Shown here one piece after another: positions 20,546 to 33,272 of a DNA stretch of 64,000 nt (positions are counted from its first letter, which is position 1; each line of letters begins with the position of its first letter). The notes below the pieces were generated by a model. That model had not been told where the DNA came from. It did no database searches and was given only the letters and a program-made list of their open reading frames with translations. Location: NCBI GenBank assembly GCA_965208615.1, contig CBDBPB010000004.1, forward strand, positions 416,001 through 480,000, in the 5' to 3' direction. Position numbers and translations under genes: made by a program. The stretch comes from Spirochaetota bacterium (GTDB lineage Bacteria; Spirochaetota; UBA6919; CBDBPB01).

Positions 20546-23265
20546 ATGGATGATGCACAATTTTTAGAAGAGCTTAAAAAAGACTTTTTTGATGAAGCAC
20601 AAAGCTTTATTGATATATTGGAGTCTAATATCCTAATTTTAGAAAAGGATCCAACAAATGAAGAAGCCATTAATGAAATATTTAGGGCCGGCCCATACTC
20701 TAAAAGGCGGCTCATCTACTTTAGATCTTGAATAGAATTGCCAATTTTACCCACGACATGGAAGACTTATTAGATGATGTTAGAGGAGGTAAAATACCTT
20801 TAACCCCCAATATTATAGATATACTTTTAAAATCAATAGATATAGTAAAAACACTTTTGAATGACAGCCTAGAAGGACATGAACGAGAAACAGGATATGA
20901 AAATGAAGTTATTGAGTTAATAAAGGCTGTTTTAAAAGGTGACTCCAGTAAAGAAGATAGCGTTGATGACATAGATAAGGCTAAGATTGAAGACAGTAAA
21001 CCTAAAACTAAGTTAGCATTTAATGAATATGAAAGATTTTTAATTAAGAATGCTTACTTAAAAGGATATTCTGTTTATGAGGTATATATTCGTTTAAATA
21101 GCTCTAACCCTATGAAAACGGTTAGTGGACTCCAGGTGCACTCTCAGATTAAGGAGGTGGCTGATATATTAAAAAGTTCCCCTGATATTGATGACTTAAT
21201 GAGTGATCAATTTTATGAGGAAGTATTATTTATAGTTCAGTCAACTGCTAGTCGTGATGAGGTTTATTCAAAAGTATTTTTAAGTGATGTTACTGATCTT
21301 GTTGAGGTTTCTGATTTTAGCGAAGATTTTGATATTGATAAAGATAAAGATAAAGATAAAGAGTTAGTTGACCATAAGACTGAGTGCAAGATGGTGCTAA
21401 CTAATGATGATCTTAGTACCATAAAGTCTTTTTTACAAAAAGGATCAAGGGTATTTAAGATCTTAGTTGTTTTTGATGAAACAAATCCCATGAGGGGGGT
21501 TAGCGGAGTTCTTTTTTATACTATGCTTAAAACAAAAGGAGATGTATTAAGGTCTATCCCAACTTATGACGACTTTAAAGAGGATACCTTTTATGATAAA
21601 GGGGAGTTTATTTTAGTTACTAATAGTAACATTGATGAACTAAGAGCAAAGCTATATTTAAGTGATGTAACTATTACCTTAAAATTTCAAGAGTTTGAAA
21701 AGGATATGGCTGATGAAACTATAGCCCCCGACTCTACTGAAGTAAAACCTATACCTAATGAGAAAAAGCCTGGTGATACTAAACCCTCAGTACCGTTAGA
21801 TAAGTCACTTTCTGTAGAGGCTTCTTCTATTAAACCAATTATTTCACAGTCTCCTAATAGAAAAAGTATTACAAGTGTTTTGAGAGTGGAAAGCTCTCGA
21901 ATTGATGAAATGCTAAACTTGGTTGGAGAGCTGGTTATTATAAAAGCAAGTTTTAGTCAGCTTAATGATGATAACTTAGCTATTTTTGATGATCTTATTA
22001 CCTTAAACGTACAGTATAAGGATTTTATTAGGCAGCTATTAGACGATATTGATGAGATCCTTAAGAAAACAGAAACTGATGATGATAAAGCTGGTGAATA
22101 TGTTGAGAAGTTAAAAAAAATAGAACTTCAAGATAGAATAGAACCTATAATTGGACATTTTGATAAAGTTTTCCCTAAATATCGTGAGGTACAAGAAAAA
22201 CTAAAAAGATCCACCCAAAACCTTGGCAGGATAACTGACGATCTACAAGAAAGTGTTATGAAAGTTAGGATGGTTCCTATTAATCAGATATTTAGTAGGT
22301 TTCCGCGTCTAATAAGGGATATTTCTAAAAATCTTAATAAGAATATTAATTTATCCATGTATGGTGAAGATACTGAGCTTGACAAGAGTGTTGTAGAGGA
22401 TTTAGTTGATCCTCTTATTCATATTGTAAGAAATGCAGTAGATCATGGTATTGAGCTTCCTGATGAGAGAATTAAAAAAGGTAAAGAAGAAACTGGATCT
22501 GTTGAGTTAAAAGCAGAACATGAAGGTAATACTGTTGCCATTTCTATTAAGGATGACGGTAGAGGTCTAAGTCTTTCTAAGATACGTAAAAAAGCTATAG
22601 ATAATAAGTTAATTGAGGCTAATCAAGAGTTAAGTAATGAGGAGCTTGTTAATCTTATATTCCATCCCGGTTTTTCTACTGCTACTGAGGTGACTTCTAT
22701 TTCTGGTAGAGGAGTAGGCTTGGATGTAGTAAAAAAGAAAATTGAAAATATTGGTGGTGCTATTGAGATCACTTCAGAAGAAGGAAAAGGAAGTAATTTT
22801 GGAATAAAAATACCCCTTACACTGGCTATTATTCAGGCTCTTTTAGTCCAAGTTAACAACTATATTTATTCTATACCTATAAACTCTGTTCTTGAGACTT
22901 TAAGAGTTTCTCCTGAGGATGTTAAACTATTAGAAAATACTGAAGTTATTAGAGTAAGAGAGGAAATATTATCACTGGTTCAACTGGACTATTTATTTAA
23001 ACATCGTTTAGCAGAAAGAGAAGGTGGAAGCTTTTATGTTATAGTTGTTGGGATCTCTGGTAAAAAAATGGCCTTAGGTGTAGATAGTTTATTAGGTGAG
23101 CAGGATGTAGTAATTAAACCTTTAAATAATAGATATACTAATGTAAAAGGAATTGCTGGAGCTACCATACTAGGCGATGGACAAATTAGCTTGGTACTGG
23201 ATGTTGGAGGTATATTTCATTTAGTAAGTACACAAAAAAGAAAGTTATATGATATACAAGCTTAA
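20546..23265 (+). CDS. cheA: Chemotaxis histidine kinase CheA (two indels in the Hpt/P1 region)
   Basis: P1 INEIFRA(A)HTLKGG is split by extra bases near 20689 and 20727. Also seen: two P2-like domains, RVESSRIDEMLNLVGELVI, HIVRNAVDHGIE, DDGRG, SGRGVGLDVV, and CheW domain IAGATILGDG. Confidence 0.95.
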
Positions 23266-23276
23266 TAGGTAAACCA

Positions 23277-24587
23277 ATGTCAGCTATATTATCAACGATT
23301 AACCAATTAGTTACTTTTCAGTTAGAGAGTGATATTCTGGGTGTTGACATTATGCATACTCAAGAGATCCTCAGCTTAGGTAACCTTAGAAAAGTTCCAA
23401 ACTCCCCTTTTTATTTTGACGGAATGCTAGATCTTAGAGGAACTGTTCTCCCTGTTATCAATTTTAAAAAACTATTTAACTTTGGAACATTTGATTTATC
23501 CCGTGATAAGGGAATTGTCATTATTAAAGATGATAATAAAAAGTGTTTTGGGGTTATTATTGATGAGATTTTACGTGTAGTTAACATTGAAAAGGCTAAA
23601 GTAAAAAAGATACCAGAAAGCTTTTCTAAATCTCTTAAGCAATATATTTCCGGAGTAGTTGAGGTAGAGAATGAATTAATCTCTATTTTGGATATTAAAG
23701 CTATTTTTCAAACTGTTGTTAAAGATCTTGGGAAAAATGCTGAAGATGATCAGGTTTTTTTAGATTTTCGTAGGGATAAATTTAAGCTACTTGATACTGA
23801 AGAAGAAAAACAAATTTATCACTTTTTAGATTCTTTTGGCGTTAAACAGAATATGGTAACTAGTATTGGAGCAAAAAATTATTTTTCAAGAATGAGAATT
23901 AATACTAATCTACCTATAGATGTTGTACTTAATGACTTTAAAACTTCTCTTGCAGAAAAAGCATATAATGTTTTGGCTTTCAAAAAAAGTATAGAATTTT
24001 TTGATTATTATAATGATTATTTTAATTTTTTAGCTATTTTAGAAAGTGTGATTTTACCTATTAAGAAAAAACAAGGATTATTAAATATAAAAATTGTTAA
24101 CCTGCAGTGTGGAAAAGGTTTTGAATGCTATTCTATTCTTTTTATCTTGAAGGCATTCATTCCTAATTTTTCTAAGTGGAACATAGAAATTATAGCTTTT
24201 AATGACGATTATAATGAGTTATCCTTTGCAAGTGAAGGACTTTATCAAGAGGAATACTTATTAAAAGTTAGCAATTGCGATTACGATAACTTTTTCTATA
24301 AAGAAAAAGAAGGGTATAAGGTTAAAGATGAGCTTAGGAAAATGATAAAATTTAGGTTTGGCACAGTAAAAAACTTTGAACCTGTAAAAAATGTTGATTT
24401 ATTTTTTTGCCGGGGAGTTTTTGCTAAATTAGGTGACAATGTTATTAGGAGAGTAGTTCTGTCTATAAAGGAATCTTTAGGTATAAATGGTATTTTACTA
24501 CTTGGCGAATTAGAAGATTTACTTTATATAAATCAACCTTTAGTAAGTAGGGAAATTAACGGAAGAAAGTTTTATTTAAATGTTTAG
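23277..24587 (+). CDS. cheW: CheW with C-terminal CheR-like domain (spirochaete CheW3 type)
   Basis: N-terminal CheW (GMLDLRGTVLPVI); C-terminal CheR-like CGKGFECYSI...DLFFCRGV...GILLLGELE. Confidence 0.88.
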   Translation: MSAILSTINQLVTFQLESDILGVDIMHTQEILSLGNLRKVPNSPFYFDGMLDLRGTVLPVINFKKLFNFGTFDLSRDKGIVIIKDDNKKCFGVIIDEILRVVNIEKAKVKKIPESFSKSLKQYISGVVEVENELISILDIKAIFQTVVKDLGKNAEDDQVFLDFRRDKFKLLDTEEEKQIYHFLDSFGVKQNMVTSIGAKNYFSRMRINTNLPIDVVLNDFKTSLAEKAYNVLAFKKSIEFFDYYNDYFNFLAILESVILPIKKKQGLLNIKIVNLQCGKGFECYSILFILKAFIPNFSKWNIEIIAFNDDYNELSFASEGLYQEEYLLKVSNCDYDNFFYKEKEGYKVKDELRKMIKFRFGTVKNFEPVKNVDLFFCRGVFAKLGDNVIRRVVLSIKESLGINGILLLGELEDLLYINQPLVSREINGRKFYLNV

Positions 24588-24601: not shown

Positions 24602-25072
24602 ATGAGGTTAGAATATATTAATCCATTTTTAGAAGCTTCTTGCGATATTTTAGAAGAAGTTTTAGAAACAAAAGTCAAAAAAGAAGAGCTATTCTTAAAA
24701 GATACAACTATACCTATTCTGGGTGTTGCTGTACTCATTGGCTTAACTGGGAGTGTCAGAGGACGGGTTCTTCTCGATATGGATATGGAAACTGCTTTAA
24801 AAATATCGTCCAAGATGAATAATGAAAAGATTAGTAATTTTGATAATCTTAGTAAGGCTACTATTAGTGAGTTAGCTAATATGATTGGAGGTAGAGCTAT
24901 TACTAGTTTACATAATGAAGGATTTTCTTTTCAGGTATCCCCGCCCAGTATTTTTACTGGAACAAATATGGAGATAACTTCACATTCGTTAGAGGCATTT
25001 ATTGTTCCCTTAAGTACGCCTTTCGGAAAAATAGAGGTAAATGTTGCTGTCAAAGAGAGAGAAGATTTTTAA
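24602..25072 (+). CDS. cheX: CheY-P phosphatase CheX
   Basis: MRLEYINPF, GLTGSVRGRV, ISELANMIGG (ExxN), VSPPSIFTG. Confidence 0.95.
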   Translation: MRLEYINPFLEASCDILEEVLETKVKKEELFLKDTTIPILGVAVLIGLTGSVRGRVLLDMDMETALKISSKMNNEKISNFDNLSKATISELANMIGGRAITSLHNEGFSFQVSPPSIFTGTNMEITSHSLEAFIVPLSTPFGKIEVNVAVKEREDF

Positions 25073-25096: not shown

Positions 25097-25528
25097 ATGT
25101 CTTCATCAGATTATATAAATATTAACGAAAGCCCACCTGAGGGACTTAAAGAAGATGGTACTAACTATAAAATAATGGTAGTTGACGATTCTATGTTTGT
25201 TACTAAACAGTTAAGTCAGATATTGCAATCTGAGGAGTATGAGGTAATTGCTATAGCAGAGAATGGTGAGGCGGCATTAGATAAGTATAAATCTTTATAT
25301 CCTAGTATTGATCTGGTAACCATGGATATTACAATGCCAAAGATGGATGGTATTGAATGCTTAAAAAGAATTATTGAATTTGATAAAAGTGCTAAGATTA
25401 TAATGATTAGTGCCATTGGAAAGCAGGACCTTGTAAAGGAGTCATTGCTAATAGGGGCTAAGAATTATATTGTTAAGCCTCTTAACAGAACTAAAGTATT
25501 AGAAAGAATTAAGAATGCCTTATCCTGA
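25097..25528 (+). CDS. cheY: Chemotaxis response regulator CheY
   Basis: VVDDS, DLVTMDITMPKMDG, YIVKP; N-terminal extension typical of spirochaete CheY. Confidence 0.93.
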   Translation: MSSSDYININESPPEGLKEDGTNYKIMVVDDSMFVTKQLSQILQSEEYEVIAIAENGEAALDKYKSLYPSIDLVTMDITMPKMDGIECLKRIIEFDKSAKIIMISAIGKQDLVKESLLIGAKNYIVKPLNRTKVLERIKNALS

Positions 25529-25531
25529 TTA

Positions 25532-26485
25532 ATGAATAAGCGGCTTGCCATTGGAATAGATATTGGAGGCACTTTTATTAAAGGTGCTGTTGTTGATAAT
25601 GAAGGTATAGTTCTTGAGAAGATAATTATTCCTACTTATGCTAAAGATGATGTTCAGTCCATTTTTAATAACATTTTAAAATCTATTAAATTGCTTTTAA
25701 AAAACCGTAATAATATTAGTGGTATTGGAATAGGTATACCTGGTAATTTTGATAAACATTGCGGGACTATTGAAGGATGTTATAATATTCCTAGTTTAGT
25801 TGGTTTTCCTATTATCCAAAAGATAAAAGAACATTTTAAACATTCCATATTTATTGATAATGATGCTACCAATGCGGTTAAGGGCGAGTTCCTTTTTGGA
25901 GCAGGTAGAAAAACTGATAGTTTAGTTATGTATACCTTAGGAACTGGTATTGGAGGAGGTATTATACTCAATAATAGGGTATTCCATGGGATTACTAATC
26001 AAGCTGGTGAAGTTGGACACATGATTCTATATCCCAATGGAATGTTATGTACTTGTGGAGCTTATGGGTGTTTTGAGGCTTATGCGTCTACTAATGCTAT
26101 GATCAGCTATGCTAAACAGGCTGTTAAACGTAACTTACAAACGAGGTTAAGGAATAGAAATATCGATGATATCGATGGAAAGGTTATTTGTCAGTTAGCC
26201 GAAGAGAATGATTTAGTTTGTATAGATATAATTAATAGGATTTCTTCATATATTGCTATTGCCAGTACTAGTATTATTAATTTCCTAAACATTTCGCTTA
26301 TTGTTATTGGAGGTGGAATCTCTCAAGGTAGTACATTGCTTTTTAAAGCTATATATGATAATATGTATAACTTAGTTCTACCTAGGCTTAGGGATAGCTT
26401 TGCTGTTGTCAAGGCTGAACTTGGTAATGATGCTGGAATGGTTGGTTCTGCGTCATCCATTTTCATAGAGGATGTGTTGTATTAG
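25532..26485 (+). CDS. ROK-family sugar kinase (glucokinase-like)
   Basis: IGIDIGGT, DNDA, TLGTGIGGG, GEVGHM, CTCGAYGCFEAYAS. Confidence 0.92.
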   Translation: MNKRLAIGIDIGGTFIKGAVVDNEGIVLEKIIIPTYAKDDVQSIFNNILKSIKLLLKNRNNISGIGIGIPGNFDKHCGTIEGCYNIPSLVGFPIIQKIKEHFKHSIFIDNDATNAVKGEFLFGAGRKTDSLVMYTLGTGIGGGIILNNRVFHGITNQAGEVGHMILYPNGMLCTCGAYGCFEAYASTNAMISYAKQAVKRNLQTRLRNRNIDDIDGKVICQLAEENDLVCIDIINRISSYIAIASTSIINFLNISLIVIGGGISQGSTLLFKAIYDNMYNLVLPRLRDSFAVVKAELGNDAGMVGSASSIFIEDVLY

Positions 26486-26526: not shown

Positions 26527-27294
26527 ATGTCTAAAGATATTCTAGAACAAATACTAATAGATAAGCGAGCTGAGGTTGATAATTTAAAAAAGACTGCTAT
26601 TACTCGTAAAGATGATCTACACATTGATAAACCTTCATTTCTCCATGCTTTTAAGAAAGGAACTCCTGTTATAATAGGAGAAGTTAAGAAGGCCTCTCCT
26701 TCTAGAGGTATTATTAGGGATAATTTTAATCATATTGAAATTGCTAAGACCTATGAGAAAGCTGGAATAGGTGCTATATCCGTATTGACCGATGAAAAGT
26801 ATTTTATGGGGAATATTGCATATTTAAAAGAAATTAGAAAAGAGGTTAACCTTCCTTTATTGAGAAAGGATTTTATAATAGATCCTTATCAAATAGAAGA
26901 GGCATTTTATGCTGGTGCTAGTGCTATTCTGCTTATTGCCGCCATTCTTAGTGATAAAGAGATAAAAGAATATATTCACATGGCTGAAAGTTTATCTATA
27001 GATGTTCTTGTAGAGACGCATAATCAAGAAGATATTAATAAAGCTATTAACGCTGGAGCAAATATTATTGGAATAAATAATCGTGATTTAAGAACCTTCA
27101 AGACTGATATTAGCTTAACTCAGAAATTATTATATAATATACCAAAAGATAAAATTGTTATATCAGAAAGCGGAATAAATAAACCTTATGACATATCTTA
27201 TTTAACATCATTGGGTGTTGACGGCTTTTTAATTGGAGAGGCCTTTATGAAAGAAAATGATATTGAAAAAAAGATAAAAGAAATGCTTAATTAA
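26527..27294 (+). CDS. trpC: Indole-3-glycerol phosphate synthase
   Basis: IGEVKKASPSRG, ISVLTDEKYF, LLRKDFIID, IGINNRDL, ISESGI, LIGEAFM. Confidence 0.97.
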   Translation: MSKDILEQILIDKRAEVDNLKKTAITRKDDLHIDKPSFLHAFKKGTPVIIGEVKKASPSRGIIRDNFNHIEIAKTYEKAGIGAISVLTDEKYFMGNIAYLKEIRKEVNLPLLRKDFIIDPYQIEEAFYAGASAILLIAAILSDKEIKEYIHMAESLSIDVLVETHNQEDINKAINAGANIIGINNRDLRTFKTDISLTQKLLYNIPKDKIVISESGINKPYDISYLTSLGVDGFLIGEAFMKENDIEKKIKEMLN

Positions 27295-27440: not shown

Positions 27441-27626
27441 GTGTACATGATAAACAAAAATGATAAGGAATGGCTCGCCTCACTTGTTGCAGGGGGATTA
27501 ATTGGTGCTGGTTTGGTATTATTATTTGCTCCTCAGTCTGGTGATAAGACAGTGAAATCCATAAAAAGAATATCTAAAGATGTGAAAGACAGGGTAAACT
27601 TAACTCATTTTGTAAAGGAAATCTGA
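27441..27626 (+). CDS. Short YtxH-domain protein
   Basis: GGLIGAGLVLLFAPQSG YtxH signature; AAGGGG RBS. Confidence 0.75.
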   Translation: MYMINKNDKEWLASLVAGGLIGAGLVLLFAPQSGDKTVKSIKRISKDVKDRVNLTHFVKEI

Positions 27627-27639
27627 TATAGGAGGATTT

Positions 27640-27924
27640 ATGAATGATAGAGCTGGAAGTAATGTTAGGGCATTTTTTATTGGAGGATTAATTGGGGCTG
27701 GATTAGCTCTTATTTTTGCACCAAGAAGTGGTAAAGAAACTAGAGAACATCTTAAAGAATATGTTAATGATTTAGAGGATAAGTTCAAATCTCAATATGC
27801 TGTTGCAAAAAAGACTGCCACCGAAGAGGTAGATAAAATAAAGCGTAAGACTAAAGCCGCTGTAGAGAAAGGTAAAGAGGCTTTTAGAGAAGAACTTGAC
27901 AAAAAAGAGACTGATAATATTTAG
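27640..27924 (+). CDS. YtxH-domain protein
   Basis: FFIGGLIGAGLALIFAPRSGKETRE followed by an amphipathic helix; AGGAGG RBS. Confidence 0.9.
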   Translation: MNDRAGSNVRAFFIGGLIGAGLALIFAPRSGKETREHLKEYVNDLEDKFKSQYAVAKKTATEEVDKIKRKTKAAVEKGKEAFREELDKKETDNI

Positions 27925-27943
27925 GTTATATTAAACTTACGAT

Positions 27944-28294
27944 ATGGCTATTGAAACTTCATTAGGGATAATTAGTATATCTTTGCTTGTACTAACTAGT
28001 TTAGTACTTGTTCTTATGTTTATAGTGCTATATCTTTTCCTTAAGATTTTACCTCTTATTAGTCAATCCAAAAAGGTATTAGATAATTTAAGGGCATCTA
28101 GTATTTATATTAGAAAAGAGATTCGTCATATTACAAAGACCATACATAAAATTACTAGTAGCACTAAAAACAGGTTCTACTCTTTTGATGAGACTATATC
28201 AAAGATTAACGATAGTGCTTATAGGTTGAATGCTCTTTTAAAGGGAGTTACATCCTCATTAGAGTACTTTTTTAAGAATAAAAAAGATAATTAG
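27944..28294 (+). CDS. DUF948/YoxC-like membrane-anchored coiled-coil protein
   Basis: N-terminal TM followed by a helical tail; usual neighbour of YtxH genes. Confidence 0.6.
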   Translation: MAIETSLGIISISLLVLTSLVLVLMFIVLYLFLKILPLISQSKKVLDNLRASSIYIRKEIRHITKTIHKITSSTKNRFYSFDETISKINDSAYRLNALLKGVTSSLEYFFKNKKDN

Positions 28295-28331: not shown

Positions 28332-29882
28332 ATGGACTACGACAAACCCAGCCTTATTGATAATATTTTCCTTCAAATGTTCAGGCTATACAGCTCTGAC
28401 AAACACCTTATTAGCTATATTCGCTCTCAATTACTTGACAGAAAAACCATATTAGACATACCTGATAAAGTTGTTTTTCCTATTAGTATTTTCAAAGATT
28501 TTTCTTTTTATTTTATGCTGTCTTTTGCTGACTACGAAAGACATAGAACATATATAGCTGATATTGTTTTATTGTTAGCAAGGGGTATTGAAAGTTTTAT
28601 TAAGGATAGCACTCTTAAAAAGGGGAAGGCTAAAGTTGGAGATATTAAAAGGCTTAATTTTTCTAAAGTTAAACATAGCCATGATATTATCGGATATTAT
28701 ATTGAGGCTAACTTTAAGAGTGAAGAGGCTCAATTTAATTTTTACTATTATATACCTAGAAAGTCTGTTGATAAGATAATATATTTTTTATCGAAGAAGA
28801 ATACTAGTAAGATTAGTGATATTGGAGTTTTGTCTGAACTTATCCATGGTCTTAGGACTGAGTTTTATAAGAGGAGTCTTACTTTTCCTTTAGATATACT
28901 CGACTTTTTTAACTATATTTCTAATAATGACCTACAGCGTATAATGGGATTACTTATTAGTAATAACATGATTACTTTTGATATGCTTTGGGCTTTGGCA
29001 AGCCGTATGGATAATGGTATGGATAGGATTATGAATAATCTATCCAAGAATCAGAAGGAGGATTTTTTATCTGTTATAGACAAAAAGGCTGACCAGAGCG
29101 ATTATTTATGGAATAGTATTGTGTTATACCAGCTTAGTCTTAATATGGATATTCTTTTAAAAGAGAATAAGATTGAATCTGGTGTTATTTTTAGGGTTAA
29201 GAATATCTTAGGGGATATTTTTCATCAAGAGATAAATAGTTTCTTTTATTTTAAGCCATTCGATATGTGGATAAAAGAGGCTAATGATAAAGGTGTACTA
29301 CAGGAGTTTTTAAGTAAGTGTCACGATGCTATTTTGGGTAAGAGTTTTATTTTTCTGTCTGAGGAGTCTTTAGCTATTATAAGGGCTAATAGTTCAAAGA
29401 GAAAGTTTCAGACTTTTATGGAAGATATAGAATATTACAAGAGGGACATTAAAAAAAGAGATATTTATTTAGCTCAGTACGAGGCTGTAACCAGTCTTAT
29501 AGACATATTATTTAGAAAGTTAACTCCTAAGGAAAAGAATACGGAAACATGGATTAAGAGGTTTAATAAGGCTAATGATTTTAATTTAGCGGTACACTAT
29601 GTTGGACCTATAGACTTTTCTTTAGCTCTTATACCATTGCCTATTACCGTTAAGAGGTTTGTTATTAAGAACTTAAAGCCTCCCATAAAGCATTTTGTAT
29701 ATTATTTTTTATCCAACAAGATTAAGTTAAACTTTCCTTATGGTGAGATTAGGATTAAGGAAGCATCATTAGAGGTAGTTAGGTCATTTTATCGTTTGGA
29801 GAAAGAGAATAAGGTTAGTTTAAAGCCTATTGAAAAGATCACCGAAGAAGATAGTATCAATCATACTGCTAGACTACTATAA
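28332..29882 (+). CDS. Hypothetical protein with three FliG C-terminal-like repeats and a possible CheC/FliM-like N-terminal domain
   Basis: Repeats: ISNNDLQRIM...IMNNLSKNQKEDF; IRANSSKRKFQTFMEDIEY...DIYLAQYEAV; IKEASLEVVRSFYRLEKENKVSL. Confidence 0.6.
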   Translation: MDYDKPSLIDNIFLQMFRLYSSDKHLISYIRSQLLDRKTILDIPDKVVFPISIFKDFSFYFMLSFADYERHRTYIADIVLLLARGIESFIKDSTLKKGKAKVGDIKRLNFSKVKHSHDIIGYYIEANFKSEEAQFNFYYYIPRKSVDKIIYFLSKKNTSKISDIGVLSELIHGLRTEFYKRSLTFPLDILDFFNYISNNDLQRIMGLLISNNMITFDMLWALASRMDNGMDRIMNNLSKNQKEDFLSVIDKKADQSDYLWNSIVLYQLSLNMDILLKENKIESGVIFRVKNILGDIFHQEINSFFYFKPFDMWIKEANDKGVLQEFLSKCHDAILGKSFIFLSEESLAIIRANSSKRKFQTFMEDIEYYKRDIKKRDIYLAQYEAVTSLIDILFRKLTPKEKNTETWIKRFNKANDFNLAVHYVGPIDFSLALIPLPITVKRFVIKNLKPPIKHFVYYFLSNKIKLNFPYGEIRIKEASLEVVRSFYRLEKENKVSLKPIEKITEEDSINHTARLL

Positions 29883-31689: not shown

Positions 31690-33272
31690 ATGAAAGCTAT
31701 AGTTGTTGGATCAGGCCCTAGTGGTATATCTTGTGCCTATGCCCTTGTTAATAAGGGAATAGAAGTCATTATGCTAGATGTTGGAATAGAGCTTGAACCA
31801 GATAAACAAAGAATTGTTAATGAGCTATCCAACACTACTAAAGATAATTGGGATAATAGTCTTAGTTCTTTTATCAAAGATAGTCGGAATGATGACTTAA
31901 ACAATGTAGATGCTGTTAAAAAGTTAATCTTTGGTTCTGACTTCCCTTATAAGGGAGTCGAGAGTTTTATAAAGACTGACTTTTATAATACAGAGGTTCT
32001 ATCTTCTTTTGCAAAAGGCGGATTTAGTAATGTATGGGGTAAGTCCATATTGCCGTATCACCAAAACGATTTAAAAGACTGGCCAATAACTATAAAAGAC
32101 TTAGAACCCTATTATAAAAAGGTACTTTCGTTTATGGGGCTTTCAGCGGTTAAAGATAGTCTTGAGGATATTTTCCCTCTTTACTGTGATAGCTATGATA
32201 GTCTTAAGTCTAGTCATCAGTCAGAGGCAATGATGGCTACCTTTTAAATAATAACAAAGTATTAAACGACTTAGGTATTTTCTTTGGTTTTTCAAGGTTG
32301 GCTTGTAGACTTAACTCTATTGACAACTGTGAATATTGTGGTCTTTGTGTATATGGTTGTCCTTATGATATTGATTATTGTTCTTCCCAAACGTTAAGGC
32401 AGTTATTAGAACATGATAATTTCACATATATTCCTGATACTGTTGTTAAGCGGGTTAATGAGAAGTCTGGTTTTGTTGAGGTTATTGCTGAGTCATATAC
32501 TAACAGAAGTTCTATTGTTTATAATTGTTCTAGGGTATACTTAGCTTGTGGCTTTCTTAACACTGCTAAAATTATACTTGAGTCTATGGAGGCTTATGAT
32601 CAACCTTTAACTGTAAAAGACTGTCTATATTTTCTTATCCCACTATTACGGTATAAGGGTGCTAAGAACATAATGAATACAGAACTCCATACTTTACCCC
32701 ATATCTTTTTAGAGGTTTTAGATAAAAGCTTATCAGAGCAGTTTATTCATATGCAAGTATATGGTTATAACGAGTTATATTTAACTGCTATTGGTCAAAA
32801 GCTTGGTGGTCTTTATAAATTAGCCAGTCCTTTTATGGGGTTTATATTGGATAGGCTTTTCACTATACAGGGCTTTTTGCACTCTGATATATCCCCTAAT
32901 ATTAGCATTCGTTTAATTTCTAAAGATCAACCTTATTTAGTTTGTGAGTCAGAGACTAATCATATAGGAAAAACTGTGGTCAAAGGCCTTGTTAAAAAAC
33001 TATTCAAAAACAGAAAGTACTTAAAAGCAATACCAATTTCTAAGGCATTACAAATATCAAAACCTGGTAGGAGCTTCCATACAGGGGGTACTTTTCCTAT
33101 GCGTAATAGTCCTGTTAGTTTTGAGAGTGATATTTATGGCAGGCCTTATGGACTAAATCGTATTCATTTAGTTGACTCTTCGGTTTTTCCGTCGATCCCT
33201 GCCACTACCATTACCTTAACTTTAATGGCTAATGCTTATAGGATCGCCTTAGAGTCTATTAATTTGGAGTAA
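31690..33272 (+). CDS. GMC-family flavin oxidoreductase, split by one frameshift near 32243
   Basis: VVGSGPSG FAD motif, KGGFSNVWG, CEYCGLCVYGCP, SFHTGGT, VDSSVFPSIP...TLMANAYRIA. Adding one T to the T4 run at ACCTTTTAAAT joins the two ORFs. Confidence 0.85.

Follow-up and report, generated by a model that had tools for sequence, protein, structure and literature searches.

The window analysed here is a 64,000-nucleotide stretch (positions 416,001 to 480,000 of contig CBDBPB010000004.1, assembly GCA_965208615.1) of AT-rich DNA (GC content ∼0.26-0.38) from a Spirochaetota bacterium, whose 2.46 Mb genome, in 9 contigs, is 99.4% complete. At 28332-29882 it contains an open reading frame (ORF) encoding a 516-residue protein, referred to as the target, in which a domain of the FliM middle domain (FliM_M)/CheC type is joined to three consecutive domains that resemble the C-terminal domain of FliG (FliG_C). 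This architecture defines an unannotated family, undescribed in the literature searched. We propose, with a probability of roughly 40%, that the target is a soluble accessory protein, a non-anchored regulator that acts at the stator-rotor interface by mimicking the rotor. The four folds, their order, the charge pattern of the second repeat and the absence of every known C-ring anchor are established by the data described below. An earlier note on this DNA had reported the ORF, present as claimed, and had placed the repeats at ∼28890-29150, 29250-29510 and 29545-29830, positions that fit the structural domains. The features of the target, all on the + strand, are as follows (methods in brackets):

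28332..29882, + strand, target ORF, ATG start, 516 amino acids (aa), FliM_M/CheC-like domain and three FliG_C-like domains (ORF list, AlphaFold2 model)
28347..28799, + strand, N-terminal alpha/beta domain, aa 6-156, CheC/FliY/FliM-middle/CheX fold (VIA-align)
28890..29174, + strand, repeat 1 (R1), aa 187-281, six-helix FliG_C-like domain with an N-L-S-K motif (domain model, VIA-align)
29250..29522, + strand, repeat 2 (R2), aa 307-397, FliG_C-like domain (VIA-align, hhalign, Pfam)
29394..29426, + strand, torque-helix-like segment of R2, S355-K-R357...E364-D365 (alignment to the genome's own FliG2 and to 8ucs_H)
29532..29822, + strand, repeat 3 (R3), aa 401-497, FliG_C-like domain (VIA-align, hhalign)

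The presence of a CheC/FliM-like domain and three FliG_C-like repeats, as predicted by the earlier note, is borne out by both profiles and structure. A word-indexed search of 5.8 billion clusters returned two relatives (50% and 46% identity), both carrying a precomputed PF01706 assignment, and a HMMER profile search of 1.84 billion representatives identified 70 proteins at E ≤1e-3 (29 at ≤1e-10 and 14 at ≤1e-30). These 70 relatives are 159-563 aa in length and their conserved core corresponds to residues 165-497 of the target. The family alignment comprises 55 rows, 52 of the 70 relatives together with P0001-P0003, the 18 partial-core matches being left out. When compared with the PDB, the family profile matched 11 FliG chains (E 2.9e-7 to 5.5e-3); the FliG C-terminal domain was aligned by two distinct profile regions, 310-379 and 397-482. 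Pfam detected FliG_C at E ≤0.01 in 28 of the 55 members, with no other flagellar family among the five listed, and the sole name given to any member (one named among the members listed, in 8 clusters) is ‘FliG C-terminal domain-containing protein'. A search of the literature on FliG1/FliG2 in spirochaetes and on FliG-like proteins found no paper describing such a fusion.

While the family profile matches FliG, Pfam analysis of the single protein is sub-threshold and confined to R2. The whole protein gave one FliG_C (PF01706) match at E 5.3e-4 (aa 320-387, profile positions 29-95 of 108), with a score of 20.7 bits that lies under the gathering cut-off of 23.3. When the four segments were searched separately at E ≤10, R2 alone matched FliG_C (16.3 bits); R1, R3 and the N-terminal domain matched no Pfam family, CheC and CheX included in the case of the N-terminal domain. 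An NCBIfam scan of the target gave no match at E ≤1, a phmmer search of the PDB with the whole protein gave no FliG match, and the sole match to the R2 segment in the PDB was 8ucs_H (E 1.5). The best scores in the ESM Atlas (0.82) were under the 0.9 guide value and are thus leads only.

The AlphaFold2 model of the 516-aa protein, for which the family alignment was the input, has a predicted local distance difference test score (pLDDT) of 95.1 and a predicted template modelling score (pTM) of 0.90. It displays four domains, the chain being alpha/beta to ∼aa 156 and helical beyond. The leading matches in a Foldseek search of the PDB with the full-length model were FliY, FliG, FliM and CheC. Structural superposition was by VIA-align, in which helical folds may score Z ∼13 through chance arrangement; the FliG_C superpositions of the repeats, however, extend over the entire domain at ∼2 Å and are well above the unrelated rows, and those of R2 and R3 are concordant with the sequence profiles. 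The earlier note had named generic MgtE_N-like helices as the alternative outcome; the MgtE_N (PF03448) structure 8gpv scored Z 4.3, compared with Z 11-12 for FliG chains.

The N-terminal domain superposes on FliY (4hyn_B; Z 11.9, 148 aligned residues, root-mean-square deviation (rmsd) 3.4 Å), FliM_M chains (Z 10.8-9.4, 4gc8_B being 10.8), CheC (1xkr; Z 9.4) and CheX chains (Z 8.2-6.6, 1squ_A being 8.2). Within aa 6-156 every match with a Z of at least 6.6 is a CheC/FliY/FliM_M/CheX chain, while the next unrelated fold, MraZ, scores 4.3. The end of the N-terminal region, in which the last strands and helix of this fold had been recognized previously, indeed corresponds to the two final strands of the domain together with its helix (aa 121-153). 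No sequence-level match was evident when the profile of the domain was compared, using hhalign, with the three FliM proteins and CheX of the same genome (probabilities ≤0.3%), nor did the N-terminal part match any of R1-R3 in an internal profile-profile comparison. The domain is the most variable part of the protein, with a mean top-residue fraction of 0.20 versus 0.33-0.38 in the repeats. The active-site motif of CheC, CheX and FliY, which we take to be D/S-x3-E-x2-N-x22-P, was sought in its shorter form, [DS]xxxExxN. It is not in the target, and 9 of the 55 members contain it in their first 170 residues, at scattered, non-aligned columns.

R2 is the repeat nearest to canonical FliG_C. It superposes on the C-domain of Thermotoga FliG (1qc7_B) with Z 12.3 and an rmsd of 2.1 Å over 88 of 89 residues, and in hhalign comparisons matches residues 264-337 of the genome's own FliG2 with a probability of 95% (E 3.8e-8). 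R3 displays Z 12.2 against residues 235-325 of 3ajc (rmsd 2.3 Å, 91 aligned) and Z 11.0 against the MotAB-bound FliG_C in 8ucs_H, and matches residues 264-344 of FliG2 (85%, E 6.7e-6). R2 and R3 also match each other (78%, E 1.9e-5, 90 columns). As the search with the whole model gave only a poor test of R1, aa 162-310 were folded alone from a 21-sequence alignment cut from the fetched loci (pLDDT 83.9), and this model was compared with 48,161 PDB representatives. The four best rows are all FliG C-domains, 1qc7_B (Z 11.4, rmsd 2.1 Å, 88 of 89 residues) followed by 8umd_B, 3hjl_A and 1lkv_X (Z 10.8-10.2); the highest-scoring unrelated chain has Z 6.8. The sequence profile of R1 is only distantly related to those of R2 (24%, E 8e-4) and R3 (7%), and its match to FliG2 is weak. 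The assignment of R1 as a FliG_C-like domain thus rests mainly on the predicted structure, the support from sequence being weak.

The possibility that R1 is instead a FliG middle domain (FliG_M) is weakly favoured by sequence, as the hhalign probabilities against FliG2 are 7% for FliG_M and 4% for FliG_C. It is disfavoured by structure, where the domain folded alone scores Z 7.6 (4fq0_D) and 6.4 against FliG_M, and 6.6 (5tdy_D) and 6.2 against the N-terminal domain of FliG (FliG_N), compared with 11.4 for FliG_C. PMC11302681 describes FliG_N, FliG_M and FliG_C as mutually superposable (rmsd 2.1 Å), so the three repeats could have arisen by triplication of a C-domain or from FliG_M-FliG_C with one further C-domain added. 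The core of the target is collinear with residues 136-337 of FliG2 (hhalign; 94.9%, E 4.3e-8), and an origin from FliG_M-FliG_C may thus apply. An aromatic FF.F segment precedes R2 in the alignments, where FliG has MF.F.

The earlier note had pointed to an SKR...ED charged ridge in R2, which is indeed retained and in register with FliG. The R2 segment reads NSSKRKFQTFMEDIEY and aligns to NMSKRASSLLKEDMEF in the genome's own FliG2 and to NQSKRAASSLKEDIEF in 8ucs_H, such that NSSKR...ED in the target is matched by NMSKR...ED and NQSKR...ED, respectively. Across the 55 members the successive charge-motif positions are S in 46, R/K in 41, E/D in 38 and D/E in 39. In R3 the acidic pair of the family (E in 32/55, D in 45/55) is replaced in the target by Y457-Y458, the D position being Y in four other members also. 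In R1, S238, which heads the N-L-S-K motif, is conserved in 51 of the 55 members; relative to FliG, the acidic residue is shifted by three positions towards the N-terminus, placing the torque-helix charges out of register. In the target, therefore, only R2 keeps the charged torque-helix residues (R357, E364 and D365). These correspond to R281, D288 and D289 of Escherichia coli FliG. As described in PMC7564593, FliG Arg-281 and Asp-289 contact MotA Glu-98 and Arg-90, and in the genome's own MotA alignment R89, E97 and D98 are invariant in 30 of 30 sequences. PMC11302681 further reports that FliG_C docks between neighbouring MotA monomers and that, as seen by cryo-EM, one MotA5B2 unit binds up to three FliG_C domains.

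The elements by which FliG and FliM are built into the C-ring are absent from the target. At E ≤0.1 Pfam detected FliG_C only, with no FliG_N, FliG_M, FliM, SpoA or MgtE_N match, and the EHPQ motif, the GGxG motif and the FliM N-terminal peptide are each found in 0 of the 55 members. PMC7355467 describes EHPQR and GGXG as the motifs that make up the interface between FliM_M and FliG_M. A search of the genome with PF14841 (FliG_M) returned only the two canonical fliG genes. The protein lacks FliG_N, EHPQ, GGxG, the CheC active site and both the N-peptide and the C-domain of FliM, and therefore is not a FliG, a FliM or a phosphatase. Compared with FliG (PF14842, PF14841 and PF01706; 1qc7, 1lkv, 3hjl, 8umd and 8ucs), with which all three repeats share the six-helix C-domain fold, the target has three C-domains in tandem, rather than one, and a FliM_M-like N-terminal domain. 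In contrast to FliG, it lacks the FliG_N anchor to FliF, a FliG_M with EHPQ, and the domain-swapped armadillo (ARM) architecture. Similarly, its N-terminal domain has the same alpha/beta fold as FliM_M, FliY, CheC and CheX (4hyn, 4gc8, 7dm9, 2hp7, 1xkr, 1squ and 3hzh), but differs from these proteins in lacking sequence similarity, GGxG, the CheC active site, the CheY-binding peptide and a FliN-like C-domain. The view that canonical FliG contains one C-domain and is a protein distinct from FliM holds for the switch proteins of this genome. The genome encodes two full-length FliG proteins (C3:∼890-1931 and C4:362392-363501) and three full FliM paralogues (C4:25532-26104, C7:9375-9947 and C4:206014-206586), an expanded switch repertoire, and all three FliM paralogues carry the N-terminal CheY-binding peptide.

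The family profile was also searched against 301 genomes of the phylum. Seventy, from ∼20 taxonomic families, contain a full-length match at E <1e-30 and a few others contain weak full-length matches (1e-13 to 1e-22). On the basis of full-length matches in ∼70 of the 301 genomes and ∼20 families, the gene is under purifying maintenance. In one genome (G004) a second copy, at C143:5073-6077, is a 337-aa frame without the N-terminal domain that spans profile positions 162-484, showing that the triple FliG_C core occurs by itself too. Four homologues each contain one in-frame stop (G131:C13, TGA; G138:C1, TAA; G205:C12, TAA; G195:C14, TAG), three being from genus g80 and the fourth, G195, from family f51. 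These may be pseudogenes or assembly errors.

The genes around the target, identified by Pfam, are listed below, and all are in the same orientation:

20728-23265, + strand, cheA
23277-24587, + strand, CheW-CheR fusion gene
24602-25072, + strand, cheX
25097-25528, + strand, cheY
25532-26485, + strand, ROK kinase gene
26527-27294, + strand, trpC
27441-27626, + strand, ytxH-like ORF, 61 aa (E 2e-11)
27640-27924, + strand, ytxH (E 2.4e-18)
27944-28294, + strand, DUF948-like gene, 116 aa
30069-31559, + strand, hybrid sensor kinase gene (REC-PAS-HisKA-HATPase), which starts 186 nucleotides past the target stop

The three small genes at 27441..28294 (ytxH-like, ytxH and DUF948-like), the last of which is separated from the target ORF by 37 nucleotides, probably form one transcription unit with it. 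No terminator-like site was found between the target and the downstream hybrid kinase gene, in promoter and terminator scans whose output did not exceed background (20 promoter-like sites versus 16 ± 4.5 expected). The target had been described as lying downstream of the che operon. It is indeed co-oriented with, and 2.8 kb downstream of, the che genes, which end at 25528; five other genes (the ROK kinase gene, trpC, the two ytxH-like genes and the DUF948-like gene) lie between. The second gene of the operon encodes a CheW domain (Pfam E 1.7e-27) fused to the S-adenosylmethionine-binding domain of a CheR methyltransferase (E 2.2e-26).

The argument that the earlier note drew from this che linkage is weakened by the context of the gene in relatives, for which 20 loci were analysed (simple-script ORFs, three neighbours per side, 119 proteins scanned). 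At none of the 20 loci is there a che gene within three genes of the homologue in either direction. Two relatives from the window's own order keep the block trpC-ytxH-small gene-target, with the tandem ytxH-like genes and the DUF948-like gene arranged as in the window; upstream of trpC they have argS and a kinase gene, or ftsH, a K+ channel gene and an RNase II gene, che genes being absent from the portion examined. The homologue in G001 is followed by a PAS gene and a HATPase-REC gene, and a sensor kinase also follows the target in the window. A gene encoding a REC-PP2C (SpoIIE) protein is directly upstream and co-oriented at 8 of the 20 loci, all in families f14 and f32, a REC-GGDEF gene is within three genes at 5 (f14, f25 and f32), and a PAS-GGDEF gene adjoins the target homologue at one (f19). 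At 10 of the 20 loci a small PC4-like gene is located downstream on the opposite strand. In f14, f25 and f32 a conserved block is evident, in the order pyrF, REC-GGDEF, (radical SAM), REC-PP2C, target and PC4-like gene (loci L039, L041, L044, L045, L046, L049, L053 and L058; L040, L046, L053 and L057), which in two f14 genomes adjoins dnaA-dnaN.

In the proposed mode of action, three FliG_C stator-contact domains would be carried in one compact body behind a catalytically dead domain of the CheC/FliM-middle type. R2, and in most of the family R3 too, would offer MotA the charged helix of FliG; as this is the same helix that the rotor offers, stator units might be held, parked or slowed. The variable N-terminal domain would provide docking or input, attaching to C-ring proteins in the manner of FliM_M or to a phosphorylated receiver in the manner of CheC, CheX and FliM. 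The recurrence of REC-PP2C, REC-GGDEF and REC-PAS-kinase genes beside the target suggests control through phosphorylation or cyclic di-GMP (c-di-GMP), and fits receiver-domain input to the N-terminal domain, the loci being few and mutually related. A more specific version of this proposal, which we consider unlikely, is that the tandem FliG_C domains fill adjacent grooves of one MotA5B2 unit, while the N-terminal domain takes a phosphorylated receiver from the adjacent REC proteins. The MotA pentamer would thereby be blocked from turning, or the stators would be kept off the rotor. If true, such a clamp on the stator would represent a new class of motor regulator, a phospho-controlled brake that coordinates the two polar motor bundles.

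Several observations weigh against a role at the stator-rotor interface. A flagellar neighbour (flgK) is present at only 1 of the 20 loci, with fliG ∼6 kb away at one, and ytxH and the DUF948-like gene, its conserved upstream partners in the order, have no known link to motility. The REC-PP2C loci derive from only two families, and thus the eight are not independent, while two-component genes are so common that their adjacency may be due to chance. In the four taxonomic families with the most sampled genomes in the phylum, f11 (0/45), f16 (0/38), f18 (0/28) and f10 (0/17), no member was found, the only matches (E 1e-6 to 1e-12, 340-370-aa frames, profile positions 209-380) being to canonical FliG. 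The protein is thus dispensable for spirochaete motility as such. The torque-helix charges of R2 are kept in only ∼70-75% of members and those of R3 are lost in the target. Finally, the predicted structure is compact (pTM 0.90), and some of the torque-helix equivalents may be buried within it.

A signalling function that has nothing to do with torque is possible, although doubtful; as a scaffold or adaptor, the protein would have co-opted its FliG_C-like domains as generic helical binding modules, much as in MgtE_N. A receiver would be bound by the CheC-like domain, with the REC-PP2C protein, the REC-GGDEF protein or the hybrid kinase as partner, and the pathway would be one of phosphorylation or c-di-GMP. 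Such a role is consistent with the recurring REC-domain neighbours, with the location of the gene outside flagellar operons and with its conserved operon partners in the order, ytxH and the DUF948-like gene; PMC7355467 also describes FliG as distantly homologous to MgtE. Against this, both fold types are otherwise confined to chemotaxis and flagellar proteins, the MgtE structure 8gpv scores far lower than FliG chains, and the stator-contact charges of R2 are in register. The earlier note had suggested a C-ring mimic, a clutch or brake, or a pole-specific switch component. The view corresponding to the last of these, that the target is a C-ring subunit, a covalent FliM_M-FliG unit that replaces FliG and FliM at some positions or at one pole, is improbable. 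The domain content of the target resembles the FliM_M-FliG_M-FliG_C switch core, the collinearity of its core with FliG2 is in keeping with such a unit, and the genome already contains paralogous switch proteins (two FliG and three FliM). Integration into the ring is unlikely, nevertheless, because every known anchoring element is missing: FliG_N, which binds FliF, EHPQ, GGxG, the FliM N-peptide and the FliM C-domain/SpoA for FliN. In addition, R1 folded alone is nearer to FliG_C than to FliG_M, and the family was not found in most of the sampled families of the phylum.

A role as a stator chaperone or delivery factor, which keeps newly made MotAB inactive or targets it to the polar motors without braking, appears improbable, slightly more so than ring integration. 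It draws on the same evidence of rotor mimicry as the proposed regulator, and the variability of the N-terminal domain is as expected of a lineage-specific targeting module. The present data, however, do not distinguish this role from braking, and motAB is sited elsewhere, on contig C4, with no linkage to the target. There is very little to recommend a CheY-P phosphatase of the CheC/CheX/FliY type tethered to FliG-like domains, notwithstanding the fold of the N-terminal domain and the che operon 2.8 kb upstream in this genome. The Pfam searches revealed no CheC or CheX match, the che linkage is not conserved, and this reading was rejected as [DS]xxxExxN is absent from the target and, in the 9 members that contain it, is at non-aligned columns.

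Brakes and clutches that act at the interface between rotor and stator include YcgR-type PilZ proteins (YcgR, 10.1101/2025.08.21.671521), MotI/DgrA, EpsE and FlgX (PMC11725899). The mode proposed for the target, a soluble protein positioned between MotA and FliG, would be analogous to that of these brakes and clutches. In contrast to the YcgR and EpsE types, the target contains no PilZ or glycosyltransferase domain, and what intervenes would be a duplicate of the domain through which the rotor itself contacts the stator. FliG_C is the surface that carries all flagellar torque and FliM_M is the switch hub; the target protein would offer a natural tool for probing how stator and rotor recognize each other. 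It is also a candidate for one of the factors, long sought, by which spirochaetes modulate or coordinate their polar motors. If MotA were bound, rotor mimicry would join the PilZ proteins and the EpsE clutch as a mode of braking. Even if MotA is not bound, an unannotated family has been defined, whose architecture is testable.

A second FliG_C fusion is encoded elsewhere in the genome, at C3:42134-42802 (+ strand). This 222-aa soluble protein combines FliG_C (Pfam E 8.6e-13, aa 4-89) with the cytoplasmic domain of MotA, without transmembrane helices. In BLASTP comparisons with the genome's own MotA, its residues 95-176 align to 57-135 (E 8e-11) and its residues 182-215 to 216-249 (E 1e-5). The possibility that this fusion co-occurs with the target family was rejected, as it is found in just 3 of the 301 phylum genomes, all from the window's own order. 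Downstream of the hybrid kinase gene in the window, two adjoining frames on the + strand contain an FAD/NAD-binding N-terminal motif (31690-32247) and the N and C pieces of a GMC oxidoreductase (32298-33272), as detected by Pfam, and may represent a single gene broken by a frameshift or stop.

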